A stretch of DNA of 44,996 bases, taken from the sequence record PZ789432.1; one strand, given 5' to 3'. Positions 6,337-32,179 of the stretch are shown one piece after another; the stretch's first letter is position 1; every line of letters starts with the position of its first letter. The DNA is from a phage. The position numbers were made by a program, and so were the translations under genes. The notes under the pieces are model-generated. The model saw only the letters and a program-made list of their open reading frames with translations, did no database searches and was not told the origin of the DNA.

Positions 6337-6341
6337 TTCGT

Positions 6342-6364
6342 ATTTACCGGACAATATAGATAAG
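6342..6364 (+). promoter_or_regulatory. phage RNAP promoter variant (atttaccggacaatatagataag)
   Basis: One core mismatch (C to A); second of two tandem promoters upstream of the gene 1.1-like ORF, as phi1.1A/phi1.1B in T7. Confidence 0.55.
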
Positions 6365-6740: not shown

Positions 6741-8728
6741 TGGCTATTATTAATAACATCCCGTGCCCTGCCTGTCAAAAGAATGGACATGATATTACTG
6801 GCAACCATCTTATGATATTTGAGGATGGCGCTGGTTACTGTAACCGTGGTCACTTCCATGATAATGGTAAGCCTTATTACCATAAGCCAGAGGGTGGTAT
6901 CGAGATAACCGAATTGCCTATTACTGGCAATATCAAATATACACCTTCTCAATTCAAAGAAATGGAGAAGGAAGGGAAGATAAGCGACCCTAAGCTACGC
7001 GCCATCGCACTTGGTGGTATGCGTATGAAAGATCGTTGGGAGGTCATGAATGAGCAAGAAAGGGCAGACCAAGAAGCAGAGTGGAAGCTTGATGTTGAAT
7101 GGTTCCTCACGCTTAAGCGTAAGAACCTTGTATCCCGTCACATTCGAGGTGACATCGCAGCAATGTACGATGTGCGCGTTGGACACGATGAAGAGGGAAG
7201 AGTCAACCGTCACTATTATCCACGATATGAAAAGGGTGTGCTTGTTGGAGCAAAATGCCGGACGTTGCCGAAGGATTTTAAGTTCGGACACCTAGGTAAA
7301 CTCTTTGGTATGCAAGACCTTTTCGGTATGAACACTTTGTCTCACGTGTTAGACAAGGGGAGACGAAAGGATTGCTTGCTTATTGTAGGCGGTGAACTTG
7401 ATGCACTAGCAGCGCAGCAGATGCTCCTTGATTCTGCCAAGGGTACTAAGTGGGAAGGCCAGCCATACCATGTATGGTCTGTCAACAAAGGCGAGTCTTG
7501 TCTTGAAGAGATAGTGCAAAACCGTGAGCATATCGCCCAATTCAAGAAGATTATATGGGGTTTTGATGGAGATGAGGTAGGGCAGAAGCAGAATCAGCAA
7601 GCGGCTCGCCTGTTTCCTGGCAAATCCTATATCCTTGAATACCCCTCTGGTTGCAAAGATGCTAACAAGGCATTGATGGCTGGCAAGGCTAAAGAGTTTG
7701 TAGATGCATGGTTTAATGCCAAGTCATCTGATGAAGTCTTTGGTAGCCAGATTAAATCTATCGCATCTCAAAGGGATAAGCTCAAGGCTGCACGTCCAGA
7801 GCAAGGACTATCATGGCCTTGGCCTAAGCTGAACAAGGTCACGCTAGGTATTCGTAAGAACCAACTTATCATTGTAGGCGCAGGCTCTGGTGTAGGTAAG
7901 ACTGAGTTCCTTCGTGAAGTAGTTAAGCACCTCATTGAAGAACACGGTGAATCTGTAGGCATCATTTCTACAGAAGACCCGATGGTCAAGGTGTCCCGTG
8001 CTTTTATCGGCAAGTGGATTGATAAGCGCATTGAGTTACCGCCAACCAACGACCCGAAAGAAGATGGATACCGTGAGGTGTTCGACTACACCGAGGAAGA
8101 GGCTAACGCCGCCATTGATTATGTAGCTGATACAGGTAAGCTGTTTGTAGCTGACCTAGAGGGTGACTATTCGATGGAAAAGGTAGAGCAAACTTGCCTA
8201 GAGTTTGAGGCTATGGGCATTTCTAATATCATCATTGATAACTTAACGGGGATTAAATTAGATGAGCGTGCTTTTGGTGGGAAGGTTGGTGCACTTGATG
8301 AATGCGTCAAGCGGATTGGTACTATCAAAGACCGACACCCGGTTACTATATTCCTTGTATCACACCTTACACGTCCTCCGGCAAACCGTACCCAACACGA
8401 AGAAGGTGGCGAGGTTATCCTTTCTGACTTCCGAGGCTCAGGCGCTATCGGATTCTGGGCATCTTACGCCTTGGGGATTGAGCGTAATACAAGAGCTGAA
8501 ACGCTTGACGAAAGGACTACCACGTACATCTCATGTGTCAAAGACCGCGACCAAGGAATATTTTCCGGTACTCGTATAATGCTTAAAGGTGATATTGCTA
8601 CTGGTCGATTACGTGAACCAGAGCAAAGATCTCGACCGTTTGATACTGGTGCTCCAAAAGAACAAACTGTACCAGAAGAAGTAGTGGATAAAGGAGGATT
8701 TATTGCTGACGAAGTTGAAGAGTTTTGA
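6740..8728 (+). CDS. DNA primase/helicase (T7 gp4-like)
   Basis: 662 aa; N-terminal zinc ribbon CPACQ...CNRGH; Walker A VGAGSGVGKTEF; acidic C-terminus ending EEF. Confidence 0.93.
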   Translation: MAIINNIPCPACQKNGHDITGNHLMIFEDGAGYCNRGHFHDNGKPYYHKPEGGIEITELPITGNIKYTPSQFKEMEKEGKISDPKLRAIALGGMRMKDRWEVMNEQERADQEAEWKLDVEWFLTLKRKNLVSRHIRGDIAAMYDVRVGHDEEGRVNRHYYPRYEKGVLVGAKCRTLPKDFKFGHLGKLFGMQDLFGMNTLSHVLDKGRRKDCLLIVGGELDALAAQQMLLDSAKGTKWEGQPYHVWSVNKGESCLEEIVQNREHIAQFKKIIWGFDGDEVGQKQNQQAARLFPGKSYILEYPSGCKDANKALMAGKAKEFVDAWFNAKSSDEVFGSQIKSIASQRDKLKAARPEQGLSWPWPKLNKVTLGIRKNQLIIVGAGSGVGKTEFLREVVKHLIEEHGESVGIISTEDPMVKVSRAFIGKWIDKRIELPPTNDPKEDGYREVFDYTEEEANAAIDYVADTGKLFVADLEGDYSMEKVEQTCLEFEAMGISNIIIDNLTGIKLDERAFGGKVGALDECVKRIGTIKDRHPVTIFLVSHLTRPPANRTQHEEGGEVILSDFRGSGAIGFWASYALGIERNTRAETLDERTTTYISCVKDRDQGIFSGTRIMLKGDIATGRLREPEQRSRPFDTGAPKEQTVPEEVVDKGGFIADEVEEF

Positions 8729-9404: not shown

Positions 9405-9420
9405 GTCTCACATGTGAGAC
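9405..9420. repeat. 16-bp perfect palindrome GTCTCACATGTGAGAC in a terminator-like context
   Basis: Flanks extend the pairing (gcttgtctcaca/tgtgagacaggc), followed by tcttatt. Confidence 0.8.
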
Positions 9421-10548: not shown

Positions 10549-10564
10549 GTCTCACACGTGAGAC
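10549..10564. repeat. 16-bp palindrome GTCTCACACGTGAGAC in a terminator-like context
   Basis: Extended stem ggttgtctcac/gtgagacagcc followed by tttcatc. Confidence 0.8.
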
Positions 10565-15614: not shown

Positions 15615-15630
15615 GTCTCACGTGTGAGAC
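15615..15630. repeat. 16-bp palindrome GTCTCACGTGTGAGAC
   Basis: Same family; 15 bp upstream of a phage promoter. Confidence 0.8.
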
Positions 15631-15644: not shown

Positions 15645-15668
15645 TATTTACTGGACACTATAGAAGAG
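15645..15668 (+). promoter_or_regulatory. phage RNAP promoter (tatttactggacactatagaagag)
   Basis: Exact consensus; +1 G at 15663. Confidence 0.8.
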
Positions 15669-15718: not shown

Positions 15719-16099
15719 ATGTTCAAGATTGAAACTATCGTAAACCGTGTTGTTAAAGGTGCTGCTCTGGTATCCGTTGAGTCTTTCATTATCGTCGATG
15801 AAGCTGATCAACTGGTAGCTGGTACTAAGGCTTACGATACCCGTGAAGAAGCTCAGGCTAAGATTGACAGCATGGGTAACTTCGCTGCTGGTTTGGAGTT
15901 CGCTCGTGCTTGCTTCCCTGAGCAGGCTGACAAAGCTCAGATTGGTAAGGCTAATATCGTAGCTGAATATCTGGATTGGATTGCTGCTGGTAAGCCGGTG
16001 AAAGAAGTTAAGTCTGCTGAAGAAGCTGAATCTCAGGCAGTAGAAGAAGAAGTAGCTGCACCGGTAGATGCTCCGGTAAGCGAAGAGGAAGAGTTTTAA
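15719..16099 (+). CDS. hypothetical acidic protein (126 aa) ending SEEEEF; candidate SSB-like or polymerase-interacting protein
   Basis: ORF track; strong SD AAAGGAG; framed by a consensus promoter and a hairpin terminator. Confidence 0.75.
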   Translation: MFKIETIVNRVVKGAALVSVESFIIVDEADQLVAGTKAYDTREEAQAKIDSMGNFAAGLEFARACFPEQADKAQIGKANIVAEYLDWIAAGKPVKEVKSAEEAESQAVEEEVAAPVDAPVSEEEEF

Positions 16100-16105
16100 T
16101 TGATG

Positions 16106-16137
16106 CCCTGTCTGCCTTAGTGTAGGCAGGGTCTTTT
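16106..16137 (+). terminator. hairpin + U-run terminator
   Basis: ccctgtctgc-cttagt-gtaggcaggg followed by TCTTTT; similar in sequence to the terminator after the capsid gene. Confidence 0.6.
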
Positions 16138-16163
16138 GCGTAATAGTTATTGGAGAATGAATT

Positions 16164-16469
16164 ATGCCGACTATTAAATCTCGTTTAGTAGCAGACTATG
16201 TGTATGGTCGTGACTTAAAGTTAATGCAAGATTACTTTAAAGTAATCATCCTGCTGGATGGAGAAGTGTTTCACACTAAAACATTCACCCTTCCTGAATT
16301 GTTTGATTTAGGTTATTGGGGTTATACATATCAGGCCATAGCAGACAAGGTGCTACTCAGTGTATTAGAGGAGTGGCCTACATGCGACCAAACTTCGACT
16401 TCGGAGCTACAGTATCGGAAGACAATAACCTGTTGCTGTGGCCAACTGAAGGTAATAGAATCGCTTTAA
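16164..16469 (+). CDS. hypothetical protein (101 aa)
   Basis: ORF track; SD GGAG; 3' end overlaps the exonuclease start. Confidence 0.55.
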   Translation: MPTIKSRLVADYVYGRDLKLMQDYFKVIILLDGEVFHTKTFTLPELFDLGYWGYTYQAIADKVLLSVLEEWPTCDQTSTSELQYRKTITCCCGQLKVIESL

Positions 16470-17026
16470 TAGATGCTGACATGTTACCCTACATCGTAGG
16501 TTATACAATCAGTGACATGACTTATGTACGAGCCACAACTCGTGTTAAGTCAGGACAAGTCCCATCAATCAAAGATACACCTGAGTGTAAGCAAGCGTGT
16601 GACCGTGTGAACTCCTTGCTCAACTCTTGGGTGTATGCAGCAGAGTGTGATGCAGCTAAGTTATTCATGACGAAATCAGAAGCTAACTTCCGTGTTCGCC
16701 TAGCCTTCACCAAGCCTTACAAGGGTCAACGTAAGACCGAGAAGCCTCCGTTCTTCTATGAATTGCGAGAGCATCTCTTAGAGGTTCATGGTGCAATCTT
16801 GGCAGATGGAGAAGAGGCTGATGACCTCATGAGCATTGCACAATGGGACAGCCACCGCCGCTTCCAGCAAGCTACAGGTAACGAGTTCCCTATCGGTAGT
16901 CCAGAGCATAAAGCATTCTCTGATACTTGCATCGTTTCCTTAGATAAGGATTTGATGATTGTTCCCGGTTGGCATCTTCAGCCGGGTCAAGAGAAGAAAT
17001 GGGTTAGAGCCTATGGGTTGGCTTGA
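16382..17026 (+). CDS. 5'-3' exonuclease (T7 gp6-like), fragment 1 of 2; frame-disrupted
   Basis: ORF track 16316..17026 (non-ATG); ATG 16382 after GAGGAG; IALIDADMLPY, EEADDLMSIAQ and IVSLDKDLMIVPGW parallel T7 gp6. Confidence 0.85.
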   Translation: MRPNFDFGATVSEDNNLLLWPTEGNRIALIDADMLPYIVGYTISDMTYVRATTRVKSGQVPSIKDTPECKQACDRVNSLLNSWVYAAECDAAKLFMTKSEANFRVRLAFTKPYKGQRKTEKPPFFYELREHLLEVHGAILADGEEADDLMSIAQWDSHRRFQQATGNEFPIGSPEHKAFSDTCIVSLDKDLMIVPGWHLQPGQEKKWVRAYGLA

Positions 17027-17411
17027 GCTACGCCGTAAGGCTAATGGTCAGGTTAAAGACCTTAAAGGTGCTGGCCTCATGTTTCATTATGCACAGATGA
17101 TTATCGGTGATGATATTGATAACTATGCTGGCATACCTGGACGTGGTGCTAAATACGCCTATGATCTTCTCAAAGATTGTAAGACAGAGAAAGAGTTGTA
17201 CATGGCAGTGCTTGGTGCTTACAAGGCTAAGTTCGGACATGGACAAGTTAAGATTAAGAATTACCGAGGTGGTTATCGTATCGGCAAGGCTTTTGACCTG
17301 ATGCTCGAATGTGGTCGCCTAGCGCACATGGCAAGATTCAAAGGTGATATATGGCGAGCCGATAAGAACCCAATCTTGTGGGGAGATGATGCGGAATGGT
17401 TAGCAAATTAA
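16959..17411 (+). CDS. 5'-3' exonuclease, fragment 2 of 2; frame-disrupted
   Basis: MFHYAQMIIGDDIDNYAGIPGRG parallels T7 gp6 HLFQTIKGDITDGYSGIAGWG; the frame changes near 16990..17026. Confidence 0.8.
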   Translation: MFPVGIFSRVKRRNGLEPMGWLELRRKANGQVKDLKGAGLMFHYAQMIIGDDIDNYAGIPGRGAKYAYDLLKDCKTEKELYMAVLGAYKAKFGHGQVKIKNYRGGYRIGKAFDLMLECGRLAHMARFKGDIWRADKNPILWGDDAEWLAN

Positions 17412-17806
17412 AATCATCGGAGGTAGCAGCTTATAAGAGGGATTTGCTAGAGAAGCAAGGGTGGAAGTGCCCACTATGTGGCGGCAGTCTCAAGGCTGTT
17501 ACTCCTATAAACCGTGTACTTGACCATGACCATGAGACAGGATTCTGCCGTGCTGTTGTATGCCGAGGCTGCAATGGTGCAGAAGGAAAGATTAAGGGTG
17601 TTATCTCTGGTTACGGTAAGGCTGGTAACAACCGTTACTTCCAGCTTCAATGGTTAGAGCGACTATATGAATACTGGAAGTTACATAGTACGCCTCAGAC
17701 AGATAAGTTATATCACAAACATCAAACGGAGGCAGAGAAGCGCGAGGCTAAGAACCGTAAGGCACGCCTTGCTTATGCAAGAAAGAAGGAGGTTAAAGTT
17801 GGGTAA
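17396..17806 (+). CDS. endonuclease VII-like Holliday junction resolvase
   Basis: 136 aa; GWKCPLCGG...LDHDHETGFCRAVVCRGCNGAEGKIKG parallels T4 endo VII (KCLICQ...HLDHDHELNG...VRGLLCNLCNAAEGQ). Confidence 0.8.
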   Translation: MVSKLKSSEVAAYKRDLLEKQGWKCPLCGGSLKAVTPINRVLDHDHETGFCRAVVCRGCNGAEGKIKGVISGYGKAGNNRYFQLQWLERLYEYWKLHSTPQTDKLYHKHQTEAEKREAKNRKARLAYARKKEVKVG

Positions 17807-18806
17807 GCTTCGCAGCTTGTACAAAGACTCCGAGGTACTTGATGCAATCGAGCAAGCTACCGACGAGAAAGGTAATGTTAATTATAATGAGATGGCACGT
17901 GTATTATCGTGTCACCCTGTGGGTAAGAAGATTACCCGCCAGTTGGCTCGATACTGGCATGGTCAATTCAAGAAGACCAAGAAGAATGGTGATTATTACC
18001 AGACCCTTCTGCAAGAAGATAAGCGTATCAAAGAAGAGCGTAAGCTCAGGACTCCTGACCGCTACGAGGATTTGGCTATTGTACCATTGCCTGACTCGCC
18101 TCATCGAAGTGTACTGGTAATCCCTGATACTCATGCACCTTATGAGCATCCAGATACCTTAGAGTTCCTTGCAGCAGTCGCGGCACGTTACCGTCCAGAT
18201 ACAGTGGTTCACTTAGGAGATGAGGCAGATAAACACGCCCTCTCCTTCCATGACTCTGACCCTAATCTGGATAGTGCTGGCATGGAGCTAGAGAAGGCTC
18301 GTGTCTTCATGCACAAGTTGCACAAGATGTTCCCTGTGATGCGCCTGTGTCATTCTAATCACGGCTCTATGCACTTCCGTAAGGCAAGCGCCAAGGGTAT
18401 TCCAGTGCAATATCTTCGCACCTACCGTGAAGTCTTTTTCCCAAATGGAGGTGGCGACCAGTGGGATTGGCAGCATACACATGTTCTTGAGTTGCCGAAT
18501 GGTGAACAAGTGGCATTCAAGCATCAACCTGCTGGCTCTGTCCTAGCAGATGCAGCGCATGAGCGTATGAACCTTGTGTGTGGTCACTTGCACGGTAAGA
18601 TGTCTGTGGAGTACGCACGTAATACACATGAACAGTATTGGGCTGTGCAAGGTGGCTGCTTAATTGATGAGTCATCCCGTGCATTTGCCTATGGGCGTGA
18701 GTCTAAATACAAGCCAGCATTAGGTTGTGTGGTTATTCTGGAGGGTGTGCCTCATATTGTCCCGATGCAAACCAATAGCGACAACCGTTGGATTGGCAAG
18801 ATTTAG
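17799..18806 (+). CDS. calcineurin-like metallophosphoesterase
   Basis: ORF track 17667..18806 (frame open upstream); motifs VIPDTHAP, LGDEAD, HSNHG, GHLHG. Likely start TTG 17799 six nt after AAGGAGG; first ATG is at 17892. Confidence 0.75.
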   Translation: MGKLRSLYKDSEVLDAIEQATDEKGNVNYNEMARVLSCHPVGKKITRQLARYWHGQFKKTKKNGDYYQTLLQEDKRIKEERKLRTPDRYEDLAIVPLPDSPHRSVLVIPDTHAPYEHPDTLEFLAAVAARYRPDTVVHLGDEADKHALSFHDSDPNLDSAGMELEKARVFMHKLHKMFPVMRLCHSNHGSMHFRKASAKGIPVQYLRTYREVFFPNGGGDQWDWQHTHVLELPNGEQVAFKHQPAGSVLADAAHERMNLVCGHLHGKMSVEYARNTHEQYWAVQGGCLIDESSRAFAYGRESKYKPALGCVVILEGVPHIVPMQTNSDNRWIGKI

Positions 18807-18823
18807 TTGACACTATAGAACAA
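18801..18823 (+). promoter_or_regulatory. phage RNAP promoter (atttagttgacactatagaacaa)
   Basis: The copy closest to the classical SP6 promoter (ATTTAGGTGACACTATAG); +1 G at 18818. Confidence 0.7.
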
Positions 18824-18906
18824 AGGGCTAGGTAAGACTTTATCGGCTGGCGTATCCAAATGATATTGCACTAGCCCTTGATTGTATAGTGAATGGAGGA
18901 TTCAAT

Positions 18907-19410
18907 ATGTCACACTATGAATGTAAGAAGTGTCATAAGCGTTATGATTACTGTACTTGTGGTCAAGAGAAAACATCTTTTAAAGTTGGAGACAAGGTAT
19001 TTCGTAATGAAAAAGATTCGATCCCTTGGAATCAATACTGCAAAGAAGCTGGTATTGACCCTGATAGCCCTGTAACCATAGATGATATTGATGGCATTAA
19101 CTTGTGCTTTCGTGAGGTGAGGGGTACAGGTTGGGATTCCAAAAAATTCAAACTTGCATCTGATAAGTTAGACAACAATATGGTAACTCAGCCTAAGCAC
19201 TACGAGTTCTTTGATGGCGTAGAAGCAATTACTATCATCGCCCGTAGTATGACTGAGAAGCAATTCGCGGGGTATTGCATGGGTAATGCTTTGAAGTATC
19301 GTCTGCGTGCAGGTAAGAAGTTCAATACTGAAGAAGACCTGAAGAAAGCAGACTACTACAAAGAGTTATTCCAGAAGCATCGTCACGAATGTATTGATGA
19401 GGATATTTAA
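18907..19410 (+). CDS. hypothetical protein: N-terminal Cys4 zinc ribbon plus DUF3310-like C-terminal domain
   Basis: ORF track 18889..19410 (GTG); ATG 18907 after GGAGG; YECKKCHKRYDYCTCG; C-terminal HYEFFDGVEAI...GNALKYRLRAGKK...EDLKKADYY resembles DUF3310 as I remember it. Confidence 0.65.
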   Translation: MSHYECKKCHKRYDYCTCGQEKTSFKVGDKVFRNEKDSIPWNQYCKEAGIDPDSPVTIDDIDGINLCFREVRGTGWDSKKFKLASDKLDNNMVTQPKHYEFFDGVEAITIIARSMTEKQFAGYCMGNALKYRLRAGKKFNTEEDLKKADYYKELFQKHRHECIDEDI

Positions 19411-19411
19411 T

Positions 19412-19585
19412 ATGGAAGGTAAACTATATAGAGGGTACTTCGGTAACTTATATAAAGTAAGCTCTCGCGGTTTTGTATTGACCTCTGATGATGAAGGTGC
19501 AATGTGGCACCTAAGTGCATATGGTTCTAACTTAGCACACTTTAAAGAGGCAATAGTCAAAGGTGTGATGAAGGAGGTGAAATGA
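19412..19585 (+). CDS. hypothetical protein (57 aa)
   Basis: ORF track 19394..19585; ATG 19412 follows the previous stop; alternative ATG 19397. Confidence 0.5.
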   Translation: MEGKLYRGYFGNLYKVSSRGFVLTSDDEGAMWHLSAYGSNLAHFKEAIVKGVMKEVK

Positions 19586-20529
19586 ACATCTTCCAATTCC
19601 TAGGTCTTCCAGAAGACCACCGCAATCATCCATTCATGCTGGTGAAGCATCGCGGTGAAGTTCCTGAGAAGAAACTTACTTTTCCATGTTATGCACAGGT
19701 GAAACGAGATGGAATATTCAGTGCTGTTGTGGTGCGCAATGATGGTGCTGTTGCCGTCTTTGGTCGTACTGGTAAGAAGCTCGCAAATGTTGAAGCCTTG
19801 GAAAAGACATTTAGTGTATTTCCTGTCGGGTTGTATCTTGGTGAGTTGCAATCTATGGCTGTTGATGTTTATCTTGAAGCTCTGTCAGGAGTGGTAAACC
19901 CTAATCGTACAGAGCCACTTGACTTCATAGGCCAGCAGATTAAAGACAACCTGTATATCGACTTCTTCGATATGTTAACTATTAAGGCATTCCATGATGG
20001 ATTCACTGATGTTTCTTATCTCAAACGTTACGATGCTTTACATCGTCGTATCGGCACTCATCTTAGCGGGTGCAACGCTATCCTTCCTATCACTCCTTGC
20101 CATAATGAGCGAGAAGTTGAAGCGTTTGCGCAAGAGCAAATAGATGCAGGACGTGAGGGTGCTGTATTCAAACTGGACTGCGATTATGAAGCAGGACACA
20201 AAGGTTATCGTCAGACTAAAGAAGTCCGTAAGGTAACTTATGACCTTACTTGTATTGGCTTTGAAGAAGGTAAAGGTAAATACAAAGGTAAGGTAGCTAA
20301 CCTCATTTTCAAGTGGAAAGGGGGCAAGACAATCAAAGCTATGCTCGGTAAAGGGTGGACTCATGCAGATGCAGAACAGATGTTCCACGATATTAAACAT
20401 GGCGGACGGTTGAATGTCATTGGTAAAATCTTTGAAGTCAAAGGTCTTCAGGATTCAAGCAAGGGCAACATTCGTCTGCCCAAAGCGGGAGAATTAAGAC
20501 ATGACAAAGATGAACCAGATTTCTTTTGA
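19582..20529 (+). CDS. ATP-dependent DNA ligase
   Basis: 315 aa; adenylation motif I AQVKRDGIF (KxDG); SD AAGGAGG. Confidence 0.85.
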   Translation: MNIFQFLGLPEDHRNHPFMLVKHRGEVPEKKLTFPCYAQVKRDGIFSAVVVRNDGAVAVFGRTGKKLANVEALEKTFSVFPVGLYLGELQSMAVDVYLEALSGVVNPNRTEPLDFIGQQIKDNLYIDFFDMLTIKAFHDGFTDVSYLKRYDALHRRIGTHLSGCNAILPITPCHNEREVEAFAQEQIDAGREGAVFKLDCDYEAGHKGYRQTKEVRKVTYDLTCIGFEEGKGKYKGKVANLIFKWKGGKTIKAMLGKGWTHADAEQMFHDIKHGGRLNVIGKIFEVKGLQDSSKGNIRLPKAGELRHDKDEPDFF

Positions 20530-20716
20530 TAGCATGAAGGCAACTCGTGCAGTTGAGGTAGCAGAAGCTATCTTTGAAACTTTATCATGTGGCATGGAAG
20601 TGCCATATACTTTACTTGCTGATGCAGAAGAACTTGGTCTTTCTGTAGAAGCTATCCAAGAGAAGGTTGACGAATTATATGGTACAGACGAAGAAGAAAC
20701 CGACGATTTCATTTGA
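20501..20716 (+). CDS. hypothetical small acidic protein (71 aa)
   Basis: ORF track; start overlaps the ligase 3' end; acidic C-terminus EEETDDFI. Confidence 0.55.
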   Translation: MTKMNQISFDSMKATRAVEVAEAIFETLSCGMEVPYTLLADAEELGLSVEAIQEKVDELYGTDEEETDDFI

Positions 20717-20720
20717 AGGA

Positions 20721-20849
20721 ATGGAGATGCTTGAGATGATTCTCAAGCCTTCTTCTCCGAAGGTGACTAAGACTCATGAAGAGTTAATCGTTGATGAAGT
20801 GAAGCGTTACATCATGGATTGTGTCAGAGCACAACTGGTGGTCCAATGA
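20721..20849 (+). CDS. hypothetical small protein (about 42 aa)
   Basis: ORF track 20667..20849; first ATG after the upstream stop is 20721; alternative ATG 20736. Confidence 0.3.
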   Translation: MEMLEMILKPSSPKVTKTHEELIVDEVKRYIMDCVRAQLVVQ

Positions 20850-21307
20850 TACGTCCAGCTTCCTTCCTAGATATTCCTGAGATTATAAACCTTGGGAATA
20901 AATATGTGGAAGAGGAAGTCAAGGTAGTGGCCCATCACTCAGCATCATGGAATGCAGAACAAAGCGCACATAACCTTTGCGCATCTCTTAGTAGAGAAGA
21001 TTTATTCCTATGGGTTGCTGTAGATGAAGGGCGGATTGTAGGGTTCCTGTGGGCTGGCTATCACGAGTTGGCCCCTTGGACACCTGTAAGGGTTGCCTCT
21101 GACATTCTCTTTTATATTATACCAGAGAAGCGAGGAACCCTACTTGGTATGCGTCTCATCAAAGCCCTAAAGCAATGGGCCAATGATAATGAATGCTCTG
21201 AGGTTCGCCTGTCTATCGCCTCTGGTATTAATGAAGAACGTGTCGGACGTATGTATAAGCGACTTGGCTTTGAACCGTTTGGCACTGTGTACAACCTGAA
21301 GTTCTAA
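20846..21307 (+). CDS. GNAT-family N-acetyltransferase
   Basis: ORF track 20819..21307 (TTG), ATG 20846; acetyl-CoA-binding region IIPEKRGTLLGMRLIKAL and C-terminal YKRLGFEPFG. Confidence 0.75.
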   Translation: MIRPASFLDIPEIINLGNKYVEEEVKVVAHHSASWNAEQSAHNLCASLSREDLFLWVAVDEGRIVGFLWAGYHELAPWTPVRVASDILFYIIPEKRGTLLGMRLIKALKQWANDNECSEVRLSIASGINEERVGRMYKRLGFEPFGTVYNLKF

Positions 21308-21316
21308 GGAGATAAC

Positions 21317-21526
21317 ATGGGTGTTGTAAAGAAAGCATTTAAGGCTATCGGTCTTGCTCAAGATGCACCACGTATTGAAGCCAAAGTCCCAGCACAGCAG
21401 CTTGAGCGTAAGCCTGAGACTGAAGCTGAAGATATTCAAATTGGTGCAGGTGGTGATGATTCGACTGCATCTGCAAAAGGTAAGCGCGGCCTTGTCCGTC
21501 CGGTAGCTTCTAGCTTGAAGGTGTAA
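21317..21526 (+). CDS. hypothetical protein (69 aa), possibly virion-associated
   Basis: ORF track; SD AAGGAG; directly upstream of portal. Confidence 0.6.
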   Translation: MGVVKKAFKAIGLAQDAPRIEAKVPAQQLERKPETEAEDIQIGAGGDDSTASAKGKRGLVRPVASSLKV

Positions 21527-21527
21527 T

Positions 21528-23078
21528 ATGAAACAGAGCACAGATTTGGAGTATGGAGGTAAGCGGTCTAAGATACCTAAGCTATGGGAGAAGTTCTCCA
21601 CTAAACGTAGCTCTTTCCTTGATAGGGCGAAGCATTACTCCAAATTAACCTTGCCCTATCTGATGAATGACAAAGGTGATAACGAGACTTCGCAGAATGG
21701 ATGGCAAGGTGTAGGTGCTCAGGCAACTAATCATCTAGCCAACAAGCTAGCGCAAGTACTATTCCCTGCACAGCGTTCCTTCTTCCGTGTAGACTTAACT
21801 GCACAAGGTGAGAAGGTTCTTAATCAGCGTGGCCTGAAGAAGACAGAGCTAGCTACCATCTTCGCTCAAGTGGAAACACGGGCAATGAAAGAGTTAGAGC
21901 AACGTCAATTCCGGCCTGCTGTAGTAGAAGCATTTAAGCATCTTATTGTTGCTGGCAGCTGTATGCTATACAAGCCGAGCAAAGGTGCAATCAGTGCTAT
22001 CCCAATGCATCACTACGTAGTTAACCGTGACACCAATGGCGACCTGTTAGACATTATCTTACTGCAAGAGAAAGCCTTACGCACCTTTGACCCAGCTACA
22101 CGTGCTGTAGTAGAGGTTGGCCTGAAAGGTAAGAAGTGCAAGGAAGATGACAGCATTAAGCTGTACACACATGCTAAGTATCTTGGTGATGGATTTTGGG
22201 AACTCAAGCAGTCTGCTGATGATATCCCTGTGGGTAAGGTGAGTAAAATCAAATCAGAAAAGCTACCTTTCATCCCATTAACTTGGAAGCGAAGCTATGG
22301 TGAGGATTGGGGTCGCCCTCTTGCAGAGGATTACTCCGGTGATTTATTCGTTATCCAATTCTTATCTGAAGCGGTTGCCCGTGGTGCTGCGCTGATGGCA
22401 GATATCAAGTACCTGATTCGTCCTGGTGCTCAAACTGATGTTGACCACTTTGTTAACTCTGGCACTGGTGAGGTTGTCACTGGTGTAGAAGAAGACATCC
22501 ATATTGTACAGTTAGGTAAGTACGCAGACCTCACACCTATTAGCGCGGTTCTAGAGGTATACACTCGCCGTATCGGTGTTGTCTTCATGATGGAGACAAT
22601 GACACGCCGTGACGCCGAACGTGTTACTGCTGTAGAAATCCAGCGAGATGCGTTAGAGATTGAGCAGAACATGGGTGGTGTATACTCCCTCTTTGCTACT
22701 ACTATGCAATCGCCAGTAGCGATGTGGGGTCTGCTGGAGGCAGGGGAGTCCTTCACTAGTGACTTAGTGGACCCTGTGATTATCACAGGTATTGAAGCTT
22801 TAGGACGCATGGCTGAGTTGGATAAACTGGCTAACTTTGCTCAGTATATGTCACTGCCATTACAATGGCCTGAGCCTGTCCTAGCTGCTGTGAAATGGCC
22901 TGACTATATGGATTGGGTGCGTGGTCAAATCTCTGCTGAACTGCCGTTCCTTAAATCGGCTGAAGAGATGGCACAAGAACAGGAAGCACAGATGCAAGCA
23001 CAGCAAGCACAGATGCTTGAAGAAGGTGTGGCTAAGGCCGTGCCGGGTGTAATTCAACAAGAACTTAAGGAGGCGTAA
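21528..23078 (+). CDS. portal (head-to-tail connector) protein
   Basis: 516 aa; position before scaffold and capsid, and size, match T7 gp8-like portal. Confidence 0.88.
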   Translation: MKQSTDLEYGGKRSKIPKLWEKFSTKRSSFLDRAKHYSKLTLPYLMNDKGDNETSQNGWQGVGAQATNHLANKLAQVLFPAQRSFFRVDLTAQGEKVLNQRGLKKTELATIFAQVETRAMKELEQRQFRPAVVEAFKHLIVAGSCMLYKPSKGAISAIPMHHYVVNRDTNGDLLDIILLQEKALRTFDPATRAVVEVGLKGKKCKEDDSIKLYTHAKYLGDGFWELKQSADDIPVGKVSKIKSEKLPFIPLTWKRSYGEDWGRPLAEDYSGDLFVIQFLSEAVARGAALMADIKYLIRPGAQTDVDHFVNSGTGEVVTGVEEDIHIVQLGKYADLTPISAVLEVYTRRIGVVFMMETMTRRDAERVTAVEIQRDALEIEQNMGGVYSLFATTMQSPVAMWGLLEAGESFTSDLVDPVIITGIEALGRMAELDKLANFAQYMSLPLQWPEPVLAAVKWPDYMDWVRGQISAELPFLKSAEEMAQEQEAQMQAQQAQMLEEGVAKAVPGVIQQELKEA

Positions 23079-23773
23079 TGTCTTTCTCATTTACTGAACC
23101 GTCAACCACTCACCCTACTGCTGAAGAGGGTCCGGTAGAAACCAAGGAGGTAACAACTGATGCTGCTACTACTGATACTCCTGCTGACGCTGGCACTGCT
23201 GTACAAGATGACAATGCTGGTGCACAACCTACTGAAGACACCGGAGGAGAAGCTTCTGGACAGCCTTCAGAAAAAGGAGACAATGGCGGAGAGAATGGTG
23301 AACCTAAGCCAGATGATACCGCGACCGACACTGAGGAAGTGCAATACTTCTTCGGAGAACATGAAGTAACAGTAGACATCCCACAGGATGTAACTGACAG
23401 CCTTAAAGAGAAAGGCATTGATGCCAAGCAGGTTGCCAAGGAACTCTATTCCAAAGGTGGCAAGTTTGAACTGTCAGATGCAACCAAGCAGAAATTGTAT
23501 GATGCTTTTGGCAAGTTTGCGGTAGATGCTTACCTGTCAGGTCTAAAGGCTCAAAATGAAGCCTTCTTCCTGAAAGAAGCCAACGCAGCTAAAGAGTTGG
23601 AAGCAGCTAACACCCAACGCTTCTCTGATGTTTCTAAGGAAATTGGTGGCGAAGAAGGTTGGTCCCGTCTTGAGGAGTGGGCACTTGAAGCGCTGTCTGA
23701 TGACGAACTCAACGGCATTCAATGCGGTGATGGAATCTGGCAACCAGTACCTCCAGCAGTACGCTGTGCGTGA
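23078..23773 (+). CDS. capsid scaffolding protein, fragment 1 of 2; frame-disrupted
   Basis: SD AAGGAGG; acidic, Ala/Thr/Glu-rich N-terminus; reading frame is lost near 23712. Confidence 0.75.
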   Translation: MSFSFTEPSTTHPTAEEGPVETKEVTTDAATTDTPADAGTAVQDDNAGAQPTEDTGGEASGQPSEKGDNGGENGEPKPDDTATDTEEVQYFFGEHEVTVDIPQDVTDSLKEKGIDAKQVAKELYSKGGKFELSDATKQKLYDAFGKFAVDAYLSGLKAQNEAFFLKEANAAKELEAANTQRFSDVSKEIGGEEGWSRLEEWALEALSDDELNGIQCGDGIWQPVPPAVRCA

Positions 23774-23999
23774 ACTGGAAAGTCGCCGGAAGGCTGCACA
23801 GGGTGATGACAAACCAAACCTGATTGAACCCTCTGCACCTGCTGCTGCGTCTGAAGATAATGGCCCACTCTCTCGTGAGCAGTACCTGCGTGAGATGATG
23901 ACTCTTAGCTCTCGCTTCGGTACAGACAAGAAAGCTGCTGCTGAGTATCAGGCTAAACTGGATGCTCGCCGTCGTGCTGGTATGGCTCGCGGTCTGTAA
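23628..23999 (+). CDS. capsid scaffolding protein, fragment 2 of 2; frame-disrupted
   Basis: Removing one G from aacGGcattc at ~23711 joins ...ALSDDELN to AFNAVMESGNQYLQQYAV... giving a ~307-aa protein. Confidence 0.7.
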   Translation: MFLRKLVAKKVGPVLRSGHLKRCLMTNSTAFNAVMESGNQYLQQYAVRELESRRKAAQGDDKPNLIEPSAPAAASEDNGPLSREQYLREMMTLSSRFGTDKKAAAEYQAKLDARRRAGMARGL

Positions 24000-24003
24000 T
24001 CAG

Positions 24004-24027
24004 TATTTACTGGACACTATAGAAGGG
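24004..24027 (+). promoter_or_regulatory. phage RNAP promoter for the capsid gene (tatttactggacactatagaaggg)
   Basis: Exact consensus; +1 G at 24022; transcript starts with hairpin gggagaaaatgtctccc. Confidence 0.8.
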
Positions 24028-24076
24028 AGAAAATGTCTCCCTAAATTATCAATTTGATTTATAAGGAGGTTTATTA

Positions 24077-25282
24077 ATGAGCACCCCGAATAACCTGACC
24101 AACGTTGCAGTCTCCGCTTCCGGCGAGGTAGACAGCCTTCTCATTGAGAAATTCAATGGCAAGGTAAATGAGCAGTACCTGAAAGGTGAGAACATCATGT
24201 CCTACTTTGATGTTCAGACTGTTACTGGTACTAACACTGTAAGCAACAAATATTTGGGTGAAACCGAGTTGCAGGTTCTGGCACCGGGCCAGTCTCCGGC
24301 TGCAACCTCTACTCAGGCCGATAAAAACCAACTGGTAATTGACGCCACTGTTATTGCTCGTAACACTGTGGCTCACCTGCATGACGTACAGGGTGATATT
24401 GATAGCCTGAAGCCGAAGCTTGCTACTAACCAAGCGAAGCAGCTGAAGAAGATGGAAGATGAAATGCTGATTCAGCAGATGCTGCTGGGCGGTATTGCTA
24501 ACACTCAGGCTAAGCGTACTAATCCGCGTGTTAAAGGACATGGCTTCTCTGTCAACGTAGAAGTTGCAGAAAGTGAAGCACTGGTCAACCCGCAGTATGT
24601 AATGGCGGCTGTAGAGTTTGCTCTGGAGCAGCAGCTTGAGCAGGAAGTAGACATCTCTGATGTAGCTATCCTGATGCCGTGGCGCTACTTCAACGTACTG
24701 CGTGATGCAGACCGTATCGTTGACAAGAGCTACACCATTAGCCAGTCTGGTGCAACCATTCAGGGTTTTGTTCTGTCTTCTTACAACTGCCCTGTTATCC
24801 CGTCTAACCGCTTCCCTAAATTCTCTGCTGGTCAGAAACATCACCTGCTGTCAAATGAAGACAACGGTTATCGTTATGACCCGACTGCAGAAATGAATGG
24901 CGCTATCGCTGTACTGTTCACTGCTGATGCGTTGCTGGTTGGTCGTTCTATTGATGTTACTGGCGATATCTTCTATGAGAAGAAAGAGAAGACCTACTAC
25001 ATTGATACTTTCATGTCTGAAGGTGCAATCCCTGATCATTGGGAAGCAGTGTCTGTTGTGACAACTAAGCGTAACTCATCTACTGGTGAGGCTGAGGGTA
25101 CTGATGGAGCACAGCACACTCAAGTTCTTAACCGTGCACAGCGCAAAGCTGTATACGTCAAGAATGCTGCTCCGGCAGGTGCTGCCGCTGCTGCTAGTCT
25201 GTCTGCTGAAGACTTAGTTGCTGCTGTCCGTGCTGTCATGGCAAATGACATTAAGCCGACTGCAATGAAACCTGCTGAGTAA
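24077..25282 (+). CDS. major capsid protein
   Basis: 401 aa; strong SD AAGGAGG; framed by promoter and terminator like T7 gene 10. Confidence 0.85.
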   Translation: MSTPNNLTNVAVSASGEVDSLLIEKFNGKVNEQYLKGENIMSYFDVQTVTGTNTVSNKYLGETELQVLAPGQSPAATSTQADKNQLVIDATVIARNTVAHLHDVQGDIDSLKPKLATNQAKQLKKMEDEMLIQQMLLGGIANTQAKRTNPRVKGHGFSVNVEVAESEALVNPQYVMAAVEFALEQQLEQEVDISDVAILMPWRYFNVLRDADRIVDKSYTISQSGATIQGFVLSSYNCPVIPSNRFPKFSAGQKHHLLSNEDNGYRYDPTAEMNGAIAVLFTADALLVGRSIDVTGDIFYEKKEKTYYIDTFMSEGAIPDHWEAVSVVTTKRNSSTGEAEGTDGAQHTQVLNRAQRKAVYVKNAAPAGAAAAASLSAEDLVAAVRAVMANDIKPTAMKPAE

Positions 25283-25290
25283 TACCTATG

Positions 25291-25323
25291 CCCTATCTAC
25301 CTTGCGTAGGTAGGGTTCTTTTT
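25291..25323 (+). terminator. hairpin + U-run terminator after the capsid gene (T-phi analog)
   Basis: ccctatctac-cttgc-gtaggtaggg followed by TTCTTTTT. Confidence 0.65.
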
Positions 25324-25336
25324 GTTAGGAGGATTC

Positions 25337-26074
25337 ATGCCTGTAATTAAACAAACCAGTAAAGTAGGACACATGATGGAAGATGTGGCCTTCCAGATTA
25401 TTGATAGCAAGCTTGAAGCGGTCAACTTGTGTATGCGAGCTATTGGTCGTGAGGGTGTGGATTCTCTCGACTCAGGCGATCTTGATGCAGAAGATGCAAG
25501 TAAGATGATTGATATTGTATCCCAGCGCTTCCAGTATAACAAAGGCGGTGGCTGGTGGTTCAATCGTGAACCTAACTGGCAGCTTGCACCAGACACGAAC
25601 GGTGAGATTAACTTGCCTAATAACTGCCTAGCTGTATTGCAGTGCTACGCATTGGGTGAGAAGAAAGTGCCTATGACTATGCGTGCAGGTAAGCTTTACT
25701 CCACATGGAGTCACACCTTTGATATGCGCAAGCATGTTAATGCTAATGGCATGATTCGTCTTACCTTACTCACCTTACTACCCTACGAGCATCTACCTAC
25801 AAGTGTAATGCAGGCTATTGCCTATCAAGCTGCTGTAGAGTTTATTGTGTCTAAGGATGCAGATCAGACTAAGCTAGCCACTGCGCAGCAGATAGCCACT
25901 CAGCTTCTTATGGATGTACAATCTGAGCAAATGTCACAGAAGCGATTAAACATGCTGGTACATAACCCCACTCAGCGTCAGTTTGGTATCATGGCTGGTG
26001 GCTCTCAGAATGTACCTGCTTACTCTCATTCACCTTATGAAAGTTGGGCGCTCCGTCCGTGGGAGGATCGTTAA
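25337..26074 (+). CDS. tail tubular protein A (T7 gp11-like)
   Basis: ORF track 25322..26074; ATG 25337 after AGGAGGA; position and size. Confidence 0.75.
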   Translation: MPVIKQTSKVGHMMEDVAFQIIDSKLEAVNLCMRAIGREGVDSLDSGDLDAEDASKMIDIVSQRFQYNKGGGWWFNREPNWQLAPDTNGEINLPNNCLAVLQCYALGEKKVPMTMRAGKLYSTWSHTFDMRKHVNANGMIRLTLLTLLPYEHLPTSVMQAIAYQAAVEFIVSKDADQTKLATAQQIATQLLMDVQSEQMSQKRLNMLVHNPTQRQFGIMAGGSQNVPAYSHSPYESWALRPWEDR

Positions 26075-28476
26075 TGGAAGTACAAGGTTCATTAGGTAGA
26101 CAAATCCAAGGGATTAGCCAGCAGCCGCCAGCGGTACGCTTGGATGGTCAGTGCACAGCTATGGTTAATATGATACCTGATGTAGTGAATGGTACTCAAT
26201 CACGCATGGGTACAACTCATATTGCAAAGATACTTGATGCTGGGACTGATGACATGGCTATTCATCATTATCGCAGAGGTGATGGTGATGAAGAGTATTT
26301 CTTCACGTTGAAGAAAGGACAAGTTCCTGAGATATTTGATAAGTATGGGCGCAAATGTAATGTGACTTCACAAGATGCACCTATGACCTACCTCTCTGAG
26401 GTTGTTAATCCAAGGGAAGATGTACAATTCATGACGATAGCTGATGTTACTTTCATGCTTAATCGTAGGAAAGTAGTTAAAGCTAGTAACAGGAAGTCAC
26501 CTAAAGTTGGAAACAAAGCCATTGTGTTTTGTGCGTATGGTCAATATGGTACATCTTATTCCATTGTAATTAATGGGACCAACGCTGCTAGTTTTAAAAC
26601 ACCGGATGGTGGAAGTGCAGACCATGTTGAACAAATTCGAACTGAACGTATCACTTCTGAATTGTACTCTAAGTTGCAGCAATGGAGCGGTGTGAGTGAC
26701 TATGAAATACAAAGAGACGGTACTAGTATATTTATCGAGAGACGGGATGGTGCTAGCTTTACAATAACAACCACCGATGGTGCAAAAGGTAAGGACTTAG
26801 TGGCTATCAAGAATAAAGTTAGCTCTACTGACCTACTCCCTTCTCGTGCGCCTGCTGGTTATAAAGTACAAGTGTGGCCCACTGGCAGCAAACCTGAGTC
26901 TCGTTACTGGCTGCAAGCTGAGCCTAAAGAGGGAAACCTTGTGTCTTGGAAAGAAACAATAGCTGCTGATGTATTACTTGGGTTTGATAAAAGCACAATG
27001 CCTTACATTATTGAACGTACAGATATCATCAACGGCATAGCTCAATTCAAGATAAGACAAGGTGATTGGGAAGATCGTAAAGTAGGGGATGACTTGACTA
27101 ACCCTATGCCCTCTTTTATTGATGAGGAGGTACCACAGACAATAGGTGGAATGTTCATGGTGCAGAACCGCCTATGCTTTACAGCAGGTGAAGCGGTTAT
27201 TGCTTCTCGTACATCATACTTCTTCGATTTCTTTCGTTATACGGTTATCTCTGCATTGGCAACTGACCCATTTGATATTTTCTCAGATGCTAGTGAAGTC
27301 TACCAGCTAAAACATGCAGTGACCTTAGATGGCGCTACCGTGTTGTTCTCTGATAAGTCACAATTCATACTGCCAGGCGATAAGCCTTTAGAGAAGTCAA
27401 ATGCACTGCTTAAGCCTGTTACAACATTTGAAGTGAACAATAAAGTGAAGCCAGTAGTAACTGGTGAATCGGTAATGTTTGCCACTAATGATGGTTCTTA
27501 CTCTGGTGTACGAGAGTTCTATACCGACTCTTATAGTGACACTAAGAAGGCACAAGCAATCACAAGTCATGTGAATAAACTCATCGAAGGTAACATTACC
27601 AACATGGCAGCAAGCACCAATGTCAACAGGTTACTTGTCACTACCGATAAGTATCGTAACATAATCTACTGCTACGATTGGTTATGGCAAGGAACAGACC
27701 GTGTACAATCAGCATGGCATGTATGGAAGTGGCCTATAGGTACAAAGGTGCGAGGTATGTTTTATTCTGGTGAATTACTTTACCTGCTCCTTGAGCGAGG
27801 AGATGGCGTATATCTGGAGAGGGTGGACATGGGTGATGCACTAACCTACGGTTTGAATGACCGCATCAGAATGGATAGGCAAGCAGAGTTAGTCTTCAAG
27901 TATTTTAAAGCAGAAGATGAATGGGTATCTGAACCGCTCCCTTGGACTCCTACTAACCCAGAACTTTTAGATTGCATCTTAATCGAGGGTTGGGATTCAT
28001 ATATTGGTGGCTCTTTCTTATTCAAGTACAACCCTAGTGACAATACTTTGTCTACAACCTTTGATATGTATGATGACAGTCATGTAAAAGCGAAGGTTAT
28101 TGTTGGTCAGATTTACCCTCAAGAGTTTGAACCTACGCCTGTGGTTATCAGAGACAATCAAGACCGTGTATCCTACATTGATGTACCAGTTGTAGGATTG
28201 GTTCACCTTAATCTTGACATGTACCCCGATTTCTCCGTAGAAGTTAAGAATGTGAAGAGTGGTAAAGTACGTAGAGTGTTAGCGTCAAACCGTATAGGTG
28301 GTGCTCTCAATAATACAGTAGGCTATGTTGAACCGAGAGAAGGTGTCTTCAGATTTCCACTGAGAGCTAAGAGCACGGATGTTGTTTATCGTATTATTGT
28401 AGAGTCACCTCACACATTCCAGCTTCGTGATATTGAGTGGGAAGGGAGCTACAATCCAACCAAAAGGAGGGTCTAA
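26074..28476 (+). CDS. tail tubular protein B (T7 gp12-like)
   Basis: ORF track 26044..28476; ATG 26074 overlaps the upstream stop; GISQQPP motif as in T7 gp12 N-terminus. Confidence 0.85.
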   Translation: MEVQGSLGRQIQGISQQPPAVRLDGQCTAMVNMIPDVVNGTQSRMGTTHIAKILDAGTDDMAIHHYRRGDGDEEYFFTLKKGQVPEIFDKYGRKCNVTSQDAPMTYLSEVVNPREDVQFMTIADVTFMLNRRKVVKASNRKSPKVGNKAIVFCAYGQYGTSYSIVINGTNAASFKTPDGGSADHVEQIRTERITSELYSKLQQWSGVSDYEIQRDGTSIFIERRDGASFTITTTDGAKGKDLVAIKNKVSSTDLLPSRAPAGYKVQVWPTGSKPESRYWLQAEPKEGNLVSWKETIAADVLLGFDKSTMPYIIERTDIINGIAQFKIRQGDWEDRKVGDDLTNPMPSFIDEEVPQTIGGMFMVQNRLCFTAGEAVIASRTSYFFDFFRYTVISALATDPFDIFSDASEVYQLKHAVTLDGATVLFSDKSQFILPGDKPLEKSNALLKPVTTFEVNNKVKPVVTGESVMFATNDGSYSGVREFYTDSYSDTKKAQAITSHVNKLIEGNITNMAASTNVNRLLVTTDKYRNIIYCYDWLWQGTDRVQSAWHVWKWPIGTKVRGMFYSGELLYLLLERGDGVYLERVDMGDALTYGLNDRIRMDRQAELVFKYFKAEDEWVSEPLPWTPTNPELLDCILIEGWDSYIGGSFLFKYNPSDNTLSTTFDMYDDSHVKAKVIVGQIYPQEFEPTPVVIRDNQDRVSYIDVPVVGLVHLNLDMYPDFSVEVKNVKSGKVRRVLASNRIGGALNNTVGYVEPREGVFRFPLRAKSTDVVYRIIVESPHTFQLRDIEWEGSYNPTKRRV

Positions 28477-32163: not shown

Positions 32164-32179
32164 GTCTCACATGTGAGAC
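32164..32179. repeat. 16-bp perfect palindrome GTCTCACATGTGAGAC in a terminator-like context
   Basis: Extended stem cttgtctcaca/tgtgagacagg followed by tcttt. Confidence 0.8.

Follow-up and report, generated by a model that had tools for sequence, protein, structure and literature searches.

Two look-alike leaky terminators in a Vectrevirus genome of the K1E/K1-5 type

Introduction

In the phage genome studied here, two hairpins of almost the same sequence, each running into a short U-run, lie behind two different genes, one encoding a protein of 126 aa and the other the major capsid protein. Why should these two sites look so alike? The original prediction offered two answers, the duplication of a terminator cassette or selection acting on a hairpin that the phage RNA polymerase (RNAP) recognises. 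The window, i.e. the whole stretch of 44,996 nt that was analysed (sequence record PZ789432.1), is a complete Vectrevirus genome of the K1E/K1-5 type, in the SP6 group, and known Vectrevirus isolates are 98% identical to it. Its RNAP shares 85% identity with SP6 RNAP and reads a promoter subtype other than that of SP6. The two sites, T1 and T2 hereafter, have long been known as leaky terminators of SP6/K1-5-type phages, and finding them is largely ordinary.

Two one-gene units followed by promoter-less genes

T1 and T2 each close a transcription unit of a single gene, and both units carry the same 21-nt promoter (all features of these units lie on the + strand). In the first unit, the phage-RNAP promoter ATTTACTGGACACTATAGAAG (15646..15666), an exact 21-mer with further copies at 24005 and 40566 and a transcription start probably at G15663, precedes the 126-aa gene (15719..16099) and T1. 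The product of this gene, the gene 18 homologue by its reading frame and translation, has an acidic C-terminal tail (...SEEEEF); it belongs to PHROG 4429 ('unknown function'), has no match in Pfam or the PDB, and its single-sequence AlphaFold model (pLDDT 43) was unusable. In the second unit, the promoter copy at 24005..24025 precedes the major capsid protein gene (24077..25282; 401 aa; PHROG 267 major head protein, E = 4e-98, and so annotated in relatives) and T2. A search for phage promoters found none between 16132 and 18801, i.e. for 2.7 kb past T1, and none between 25316 and 36776, i.e. for 11.5 kb past T2, the following ones being at 36776 and 38881. The tail tubular protein A gene (25337..26074; PHROG 446 tail protein) is the first of these ~11.5 kb of genes devoid of a phage promoter. 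The genes downstream of T1 and T2 therefore depend on read-through and, with promoter-less genes behind each of them, the two hairpins would thus act as leaky attenuators, like Tphi of phage T7.

Sequence, fold and class of the two terminators

Both hairpins were found where they had been predicted, after the 126-aa gene and after the capsid gene. T1 consists of CCCTGTCTGC-CTTAGT-GTAGGCAGGG (16106-16131) followed by TCTTTTG, and T2 of CCCTATCTAC-CTTGC-GTAGGTAGGG (25291-25315) followed by TTCTTTTTG. Counting a closing G.U, each forms 11 pairs, T1 over 16105..16132 with a 6-nt loop (CTTAGT) and T2 over 25290..25316 with a 5-nt loop (CTTGC). U-tracts stand directly 3' of the stems, (U)CUUUUG at T1 and (U)UCUUUUUG at T2, and both are short and broken by one C (UCUUUUG and UUCUUUUUG). 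The U-run CTTTTG of T1 (16133..16138), of which TTTTG is kept in relatives, is the probable release region; that of T2, TCTTTTTG, occupies 25317..25324. The folding energies are -18.3 kcal/mol for T1 and -16.4 kcal/mol for T2 (z-scores of -4.0 and -4.45), the sense strand being more stable than the antisense strand at both sites (-9.8 and -12.2 kcal/mol for the latter), and a 20-kb scan ranked T1 and T2 as its two best terminator-like sites. Both are intergenic and begin 6-8 nt past a stop codon. With a GC-rich hairpin on the transcribed strand, a U-rich tract, compensatory changes (see below) and an intergenic position downstream of a phage promoter, T1 and T2 are, as judged from their sequences, class I (hairpin plus U-run) terminators of the T7-supergroup single-subunit RNAPs.

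For T2, termination is documented by proxy, with SP6 RNAP. Its hairpin is that of SP6 t5, a class I terminator whose template contains it exactly and at which SP6 RNAP stops in vitro with an efficiency of 85.3 +/- 2.2%, at nearly a single major site (Song et al. 2024, NAR, PMC11347151). Like T2, SP6 t5 (hairpin CCCTATCTACCTTGCGTAGGTAGGG) lies between the capsid and tail tubular A genes, with an ATG upstream and an RBS downstream; its U-run (TCTTTTG, or TTCTTTTG as compared with TTCTTTTTG) has one T fewer than that of the window. T1, which we infer to terminate as well and to be the 't4' of the SP6 numbering, is the syntenic and covariation-supported partner of T2 and is annotated as a terminator in records of related phages: both sites are called 'terminator' in that of Proteus phage Premi, and the T1 site is a 'putative rho-independent terminator' in that of PM 93. 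In the literature, we found no transcript 3'-end or transcriptomic data for any SP6-like phage.

We thus consider it very probable that T1 and T2 are class I intrinsic terminators met by the phage single-subunit RNAP in the middle and late regions. The 11-bp hairpin would form in the nascent RNA while the polymerase transcribes the U-run; the weak rU:dA hybrid would then give way, and the polymerase would let go of both RNA and DNA in a single step. In vivo, a constant minority of the polymerases would read through and supply the promoter-less genes downstream, namely the repair, exonuclease, endonuclease VII and phosphoesterase genes past T1 and the tail-tube and internal virion genes past T2. 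In this manner T1 and T2 would fix the ratio of high to low expression, which is the part of Tphi in T7, and two abundant mRNAs probably also end in a protective 3' hairpin, likely to be stabilising.

The parallel with Tphi of T7 and T3 extends to both role and build. Tphi follows capsid gene 10, ahead of promoter-less tail-tube genes; it has a 5' C run, a 3' G run, U-A and U.G pairs and a U-run ending in G and, like T1 and T2, it is deliberately leaky. However, the T7 stem is longer (13 bp with 5 G-U pairs, followed by U6), there is no sequence homology, and T7 has one terminator of this build whereas the SP6/K1-5 group has two. The 5 G-U pairs of T7 Tphi have been described as tuned to be inefficient, and their change to G-C raises efficiency (PMC9157156). 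The U.G wobble of T1 and T2 may likewise keep the terminator leaky and strand-specific.

Could such hairpins serve mainly for RNA processing or protein binding, as RNase III sites like the R sites of T7 or as a translational operator, and not as terminators? Their location would suit this purpose, since the start codon of the next gene follows each hairpin by 20-31 nt and the hairpins stand within a conserved leader block. T7-type RNase III sites are long (~20 bp or more) imperfect duplexes with an internal loop, but the stems of T1 and T2 are uninterrupted and their 11 bp fall short of the length of a classical RNase III substrate. Moreover, the U-run comes immediately after the stem, pure polymerase terminates at SP6 t5, and an Rfam search of the whole window gave no match at the gathering score. 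Such a role in place of termination is, in our view, extremely improbable.

A class II pause/termination signal was also considered and rejected. The T7 signal (TATCTGTT) is partly echoed at both sites (the 5' arm of T2 starts with TATCT and T1 contains TCTG), but neither matches it in full, and the placement with respect to the U-run does not fit. Defined as ATCTGTT on the non-template strand with a U-run 6-8 nt downstream, the signal is absent from T1 and T2; its only + strand copy in the window lies at 257-264 (ATCTGTT at 258-264), just past the terminal repeat.

Conservation and covariation among relatives

The T1 and T2 hairpins are both identical in SP6 and K1-5, and hairpins of the same build recur behind the capsid gene and immediately ahead of the exonuclease module in relatives down to ~40% capsid identity. 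Across 11 distinct T1/T2 sequences, 98.3% of cells pair and 5 of the 11 pairs change on both sides; none of 500 shuffles reached this covariation score, and the covariation supports the predicted helix. From its base upwards, the stem is built of CCC/GGG, a U-A pair, a variable R-Y pair, an invariant U.G and then C-G, and neither the CCC/GGG base nor the U.G wobble at pair 7 ever varies among the 11 sequences.

The two sites are unequally conserved relative to their surroundings. The T1 hairpin has a mean pairwise identity of 94%, against 55% and 39% for the flanking coding sequence, while the T2 hairpin (82% vs 78% and 67% in its flanks) is just slightly better conserved than its neighbourhood. 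T1 forms a nearly invariant block together with what leads into gene 19, namely the leader, the RBS and codons 1-7 (16139..16184, + strand): pairwise identity averages 95% in the leader after T1 and 89% in codons 1-7, and 39% in the remainder of gene 19. A small ORF starting at the ATG that precedes each hairpin was dropped as a candidate feature because this ATG is not conserved at T1, where the corresponding codon is GCG in lineages L014/L023, ATA in L018 and CTG in L029.

Origin of the likeness between T1 and T2

The stems of T1 and T2 agree at 8 of 10 positions. They differ by two G/A transitions with which both stems still pair, one being a compensated change from G-C to A-U and the other converting G.U into A-U. 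The likeness spans ~40 nt, comprising the ATG, the hairpin and the U-run, and the flanks are unrelated. A pattern spanning T1 and T2 matched exactly 2 sites and had no match in 100 dinucleotide-preserving shuffles, a site count to be taken as indicative given that the pattern was derived from the data itself. When every T1 was compared with every T2 across 11 lineages, the window pair scored 0.61 whereas comparisons between unrelated lineages all remained at or below 0.50. A chance likeness was rejected on these two results, and the resemblance, at the level of sequence, exceeds the generic shape of a terminator. The stem of the host-type early terminator of the window (6072-6095, after the RNAP gene) is unrelated to those of T1 and T2.

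The likeness also appears to be old, because a relative at 72% capsid identity (lineage L032/L035; T1 GCCC-GTCTG..., T2 GCCCCATCT...) retains the G/A difference between T1 and T2. It is not a rule of the family since other lineages have unlike T1/T2 pairs. The duplication of a terminator cassette, as originally proposed, is thus plausible solely as an ancient event of ~40 nt: the unrelated flanks speak against anything larger, the difference between the copies had already arisen at 72% capsid identity, and T1 and T2 never homogenise over the 22-27 loci.

This last point bears on whether one terminator has been repeatedly copied onto the other through gene conversion or recombination between the 40-nt repeats. 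T1 and T2 are more similar within genomes (0.316) than between genomes (0.247; permutation p ~0.02, n = 11 lineages), although this weak signal is driven by 3 lineages and the lineages are not phylogenetically independent. Two lineages have look-alike pairs of their own, L029/Premi (GCCCTGTCTGC-TTAAT-... and GCCCTGTCTCG-TTAATT-...) and L042 (GCCCTGACCCTTCGGGGTCGGGGC and GCCCTGCCCCTTCGGGGGTGGGGT), but the pairs of L028, L030 and L032 are clearly unlike. In the clade of the window, from SP6 to K1-5, the two diagnostic differences are unchanged at every locus examined, and they too were present already at 72% capsid identity; a metagenome scan gave only close relatives and 0 new paired lineages. 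Concerted evolution is therefore a rather improbable source of the likeness. Ancient common origin combined with purifying selection fits best, and T1 and T2 would then be two versions of one selectively maintained design, whether as old paralogues or through very old convergence. A duplication is putative on 40 nt; convergence towards so constrained a design would produce much the same picture.

Does the polymerase read the shared stem?

The second answer of the original prediction, a hairpin recognised by the phage RNAP, holds in a weak sense: the structure is selected, as the compensatory changes indicate, and the lower-stem module is invariant. In a stronger sense, SP6-type polymerases would read particular nucleotides of the lower stem, and this sequence-specific signal would constrain both terminators. 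SP6 RNAP indeed terminates far better than T7 RNAP at the t5 hairpin (85% vs 16.2%, with upstream contexts and buffers that differed between the two assays; PMC11347151). None of the 11 distinct sequences departs from the CCC/GGG base, the U.G or the C-G next to it, though single transitions would preserve pairing, and throughout the family the C's are always in the 5' arm and the G's in the 3' arm. However, the GCCC...GGGC base is generic, because the his terminator of E. coli and t500 of phi82 have it too, upper stems and loops vary freely with compensation, and other lineages have quite different stems and unlike pairs. Furthermore, genomes with polymerases for SP6-type and for K1-5-type promoters have identical T1 and T2 hairpins, which thus do not track polymerase specificity. 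A sequence-specific signal of this kind is, in sum, unlikely. The his, phi82 t500 and lambda tR2 terminators share with T1 and T2 a GC-rich hairpin with this base followed by a U-run, but they serve multisubunit RNAP.

A related idea, rather improbable in our view, is that the invariant lower-stem module is more than an inherited sequence and works specifically with SP6-type polymerases, for which it fixes equal read-through at T1 and T2. If so, purine-rich abortive transcripts might open T1 and T2 together late in infection, and a single RNA element common to both sites would co-regulate two ratios of expression, that of replication to nuclease and that of head to tail.

Antitermination by abortive transcripts has been shown at T7 Tphi (Lee et al. 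2010, PMC2952870), and one small RNA, made as a purine-rich abortive transcript and targeting pyrimidine-rich 5' arms, could in principle open both terminators late. All promoters of the window begin with purine runs (e.g. GAAGAGAAG and GAAGGGAG), the 5' arms of T1 and T2 are 80% pyrimidine, the genes downstream need read-through, and the pairing of GAAGGGAG, from the capsid promoter, with either 5' arm has an energy of -6.6 kcal/mol, vs -5.9 kcal/mol for the T7 phi10/Tphi control. Yet ~12% of random segments of the window pair at least as well, and the C+U runs of T1 and T2, broken by R positions, reach just 3-4 nt where those of T7 reach 5-6 nt. We regard such joint antitermination as very unlikely.

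Implications

For the terminators themselves little is gained, as they have an established place in the transcription maps of the SP6 group and one is already known from biochemical work. The comparison nevertheless allows a terminator with an efficiency of ~85% on SP6-type RNAP to be described concisely and with the backing of covariation: its base is invariant, one U.G is obligatory and the upper stem is free. The design of orthogonal terminators for SP6-type expression systems, in vitro and in vivo, could draw on this description. The arrangement known from T7, in which promoter-less genes come after a strong promoter, a single abundant gene and a leaky terminator, occurs twice in this phage group.

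Besides the terminators, a dispersed 16-nt palindrome is present in two sequence versions, each of which tracks promoter type, and is a more intriguing by-product of the analysis than the terminators.

Two known terminators close single-gene units

The window is a complete linear Vectrevirus genome of the K1E/K1-5 type (Autographiviridae, Molineuxvirinae, SP6 group), matching phages vB-Eco-KMB47 and VEc3 at 98% identity across 12 kb, with direct terminal repeats of 251 bp (1-251 and 44742-44992) and an RNA polymerase sharing 85% identity with SP6 RNAP. Both hairpins quoted in the original prediction are found in it exactly: T1, after the 126-aa gene, reads CCCTGTCTGC-CTTAGT-GTAGGCAGGG and then TCTTTTG (16106-16131), and T2, after the major capsid gene, reads CCCTATCTAC-CTTGC-GTAGGTAGGG and then TTCTTTTTG (25291-25315). 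Each stem has 11 pairs, closing G.U included, and T1 and T2 are the top two terminator-like sites in a scan of 10-30 kb, with folding energies of -18.3 and -16.4 kcal/mol (z-scores -4.0 and -4.45, respectively). Their wobbles render the hairpins strand-specific.

These elements were rightly called terminators and as such are already known. The hairpins are base-for-base identical in SP6 (AY370673), K1-5 (AY370674) and the window, and the "SP6 t5 terminator of class I" studied by Song et al. 2024 (NAR, PMC11347151) is T2, since the SP6-B template (AAGCCGACCGAGGAATAACCTATGCCCTATCTACCTTGCGTAGGTAGGGTTCTTTTGTTTAGGAGGATTCATGCCTGTAATTCAACA...) is the SP6 sequence downstream of the capsid gene. SP6 RNAP terminated at t5, nearly at a single site, with an efficiency of 85.3 +/- 2.2%, and T7 RNAP with 16.2 +/- 2.2%; the same paper, citing the 2004 genome papers, gives seven RNAP terminators in SP6. 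Moreover, both homologous sites are annotated "terminator" in Proteus phage Premi, the T1 site is a "putative rho-independent terminator" in PM 93, and a terminator was predicted after gp32, the major capsid gene, in another SP6-like genome (PMC4837284).

SP6-type promoters lie at 2073, 6157, 9174, 10022, 13731, 14500, 15646, 18801, 24005, 36776, 38881 and 40566, those at 15646, 24005 and 40566 being identical 21-mers. The first of these three is 52 nt upstream of the 126-aa gene and the second 51 nt upstream of the capsid gene, so T1 and T2 each close a one-gene unit that one and the same strong promoter opens. Phage promoters are absent from T1 to 18801 (repair protein, exonuclease, endonuclease VII and phosphoesterase genes) and from T2 to 36776 (tail tubular A and B and large ORFs up to 36.5 kb); the genes in both stretches therefore need read-through transcription. 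The 21-nt consensus at 40566-40586, the third exact copy, stands upstream of an ORF at 40608-41792 and is followed by no T1/T2-type hairpin, the nearest being weak hairpins at 38976-38995 and 44551-44574. Downstream of the RNAP gene, the hairpin at 6072-6095 is a host-type early terminator whose stem is unrelated to T1/T2, and a 14-bp hairpin, TTCATCATTATCGC-AGAG-GTGATGGTGATGAA, lies within the tail tubular B coding region (26261-26292) and is kept in two other loci (L007 and L082) via a two-sided change (CTCATC...GATGAG).

The 126-aa product (15719-16099), whose gene shares the strong promoter-terminator arrangement of the capsid gene, has an acidic C-terminal tail with a terminal phenylalanine (...APVSEEEEF), which resembles the C-termini of T7 gp2.5 (SSB) and gp4. 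The protein falls in a PHROG of unknown function; Pfam and PDB gave no hit, and a single-sequence structure model was unusable (pLDDT 43).

An Rfam search of the whole window returned no match, the stems are too short for an RNase III-type site, and the class II signal is absent at T1/T2. The only sense-strand ATCTGTT in the window (257-264, TATCTGTT) starts 7 nt past the 251-bp left terminal repeat, mirroring the T7 concatemer-junction pause site; with one copy on the plus strand and three on the minus, the motif appears under-represented on the transcribed strand. Antitermination by abortive transcripts, as at T7 Tphi (Lee et al. 2010, PMC2952870), may play a part but is not supported: the capsid-promoter GAAGGGAG does pair with the 5' arm of either hairpin at -6.6 kcal/mol (T7 control, -5.9), but 12% of random segments pair equally well.

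Conservation of the hairpins

Capsid-anchored IMG/VR loci, with capsid identity from 98% to ~35%, were submitted to an unbiased scan for strong hairpins with a T-run. Such an element directly follows the capsid gene in nearly every genome, and a second lies just upstream of the exonuclease module wherever the locus extends far enough. The common build runs from (G/A)CCC through a 5' arm rich in pyrimidines and a G-rich 3' arm that includes one or more U.G to GGG(Y) and TTTT(G). Covariation gives the helix strong support in the closer clade: among 11 distinct T1/T2 sequences, 98.3% of cells pair and 5 of the 11 pairs changed on both sides, and none of 500 shuffles scores as high. Pair 7 (U.G), the C-G after it and the three basal C-G pairs are invariant.

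Mean pairwise identity at T1 is 94% in the hairpin and 95% in the leader, vs 55% in the final part of gene 18 and 39% in the gene 19 body; at T2 the contrast is weaker (82% vs 78% and 67% in the flanks). The T1 block is single-copy in 121 phage records and the T2 block in 106, the hosts belonging to six to eight enterobacterial genera. T1, the leader and gene 19 codons 1-7 (16105-16184) form a nearly invariant block (loci L002-L029) at a mosaic junction, the gene 19 alleles ranging from 37% to 100% amino-acid identity. Between gene 18 and T1, a 55-nt insert is present in K1-5-type genomes and an additional ORF in L011 and L032; T1 remains joined to the gene 19/exonuclease side in every case.

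Origin of the likeness

Two G/A transitions separate the stems: one is compensated (G-C to A-U), the other changes G.U to A-U. The likeness spans ~40 nt (ATG, hairpin and U-run) and ends at the flanks, and a pattern covering both sites has no other match in the window and none in shuffles. Generic terminator grammar accounts for part of this: the terminators E. coli his and phi82 t500 have GCCC...GGGC bases too, and the CCCC / U-A / U.G pattern recurs in the Tphi of T7 and T3. The pair is nevertheless more alike than grammar predicts, scoring 0.61 vs at most 0.50 in unrelated lineages. Near-identity is no family rule, as L028, L030 and L032 have unlike pairs; similarity is 0.316 within genomes vs 0.247 between them (p ~0.02), a small excess carried by three lineages.

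The original prediction explained the likeness by duplication of a terminator cassette or by selection for a hairpin recognised by the phage RNAP. A shared origin is plausible but would be ancient. Recent copying between T1 and T2 is unlikely because L032 and L035 (72% capsid identity; T1 GCCC-GTCTGAGC..., T2 GCCCCATCTCTC...) retain the G (T1) vs A (T2) position and because both diagnostic differences are fixed in all close loci (n=22-27). As for selection, purifying selection fits best, but polymerase-specific sequence recognition is unproven: T1 and T2 are unchanged between genomes with SP6-type and K1-5-type promoters and thus do not track polymerase specificity. The pair is best explained by an old common origin, or by very old convergence, purifying selection acting on one leaky-terminator design common to both. 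With its five G-U pairs, T7 Tphi was described as tuned for inefficiency, G-U to G-C changes strengthening it (PMC9157156); the invariant U.G wobble fits such tuning.

A 16-nt palindrome

A 16-nt palindrome, GTCTCAC-RY-GTGAGAC, seems more deserving of follow-up than the T1/T2 likeness. It occurs eight times in the window vs 0.02 expected (596-611, 6139-6154, 6321-6336, 7339-7354, 9405-9420, 10549-10564, 15615-15630 and 32164-32179); all but one of these copies are intergenic, and three precede phage promoters by 2-15 nt. At homologous sites SP6 (L002) carries a second version, GTC(C/T)AAC-RY-GTTGGAC (493, 6093, 6264, 7071, 8547, 9383, 14255, 17752 and 30569), whose commonest form is perfect as an RNA hairpin (U.G) and imperfect as a DNA palindrome. 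The first version goes with K1-5-type promoters and the second with SP6-type ones in 22 of 22 loci, but this match is confounded with phylogeny and a few genomes are mixed.

Only this phage group has 4-8 copies per genome (IMG/VR), and the motif was not found in the literature searched. The first-version 16-mer is unchanged in relatives at only 35-57% capsid identity (L042, 1365 and 11106; L041, 3110; L046, 6094; L048, 2143; L049, 5102; L063, 11105; L044, 6416; L047, 9316), often adjoining T1/T2-type terminators; the elements there run either stop codon, palindrome, terminator, RBS or terminator, palindrome, RBS. Two palindrome and promoter pairs (6139/6157 and 6321/6342) in the intergenic region that follows the RNAP gene (6100-6360) flank a purine- and AT-rich stretch, an arrangement that echoes the primary replication origin of T7, located downstream of gene 1.
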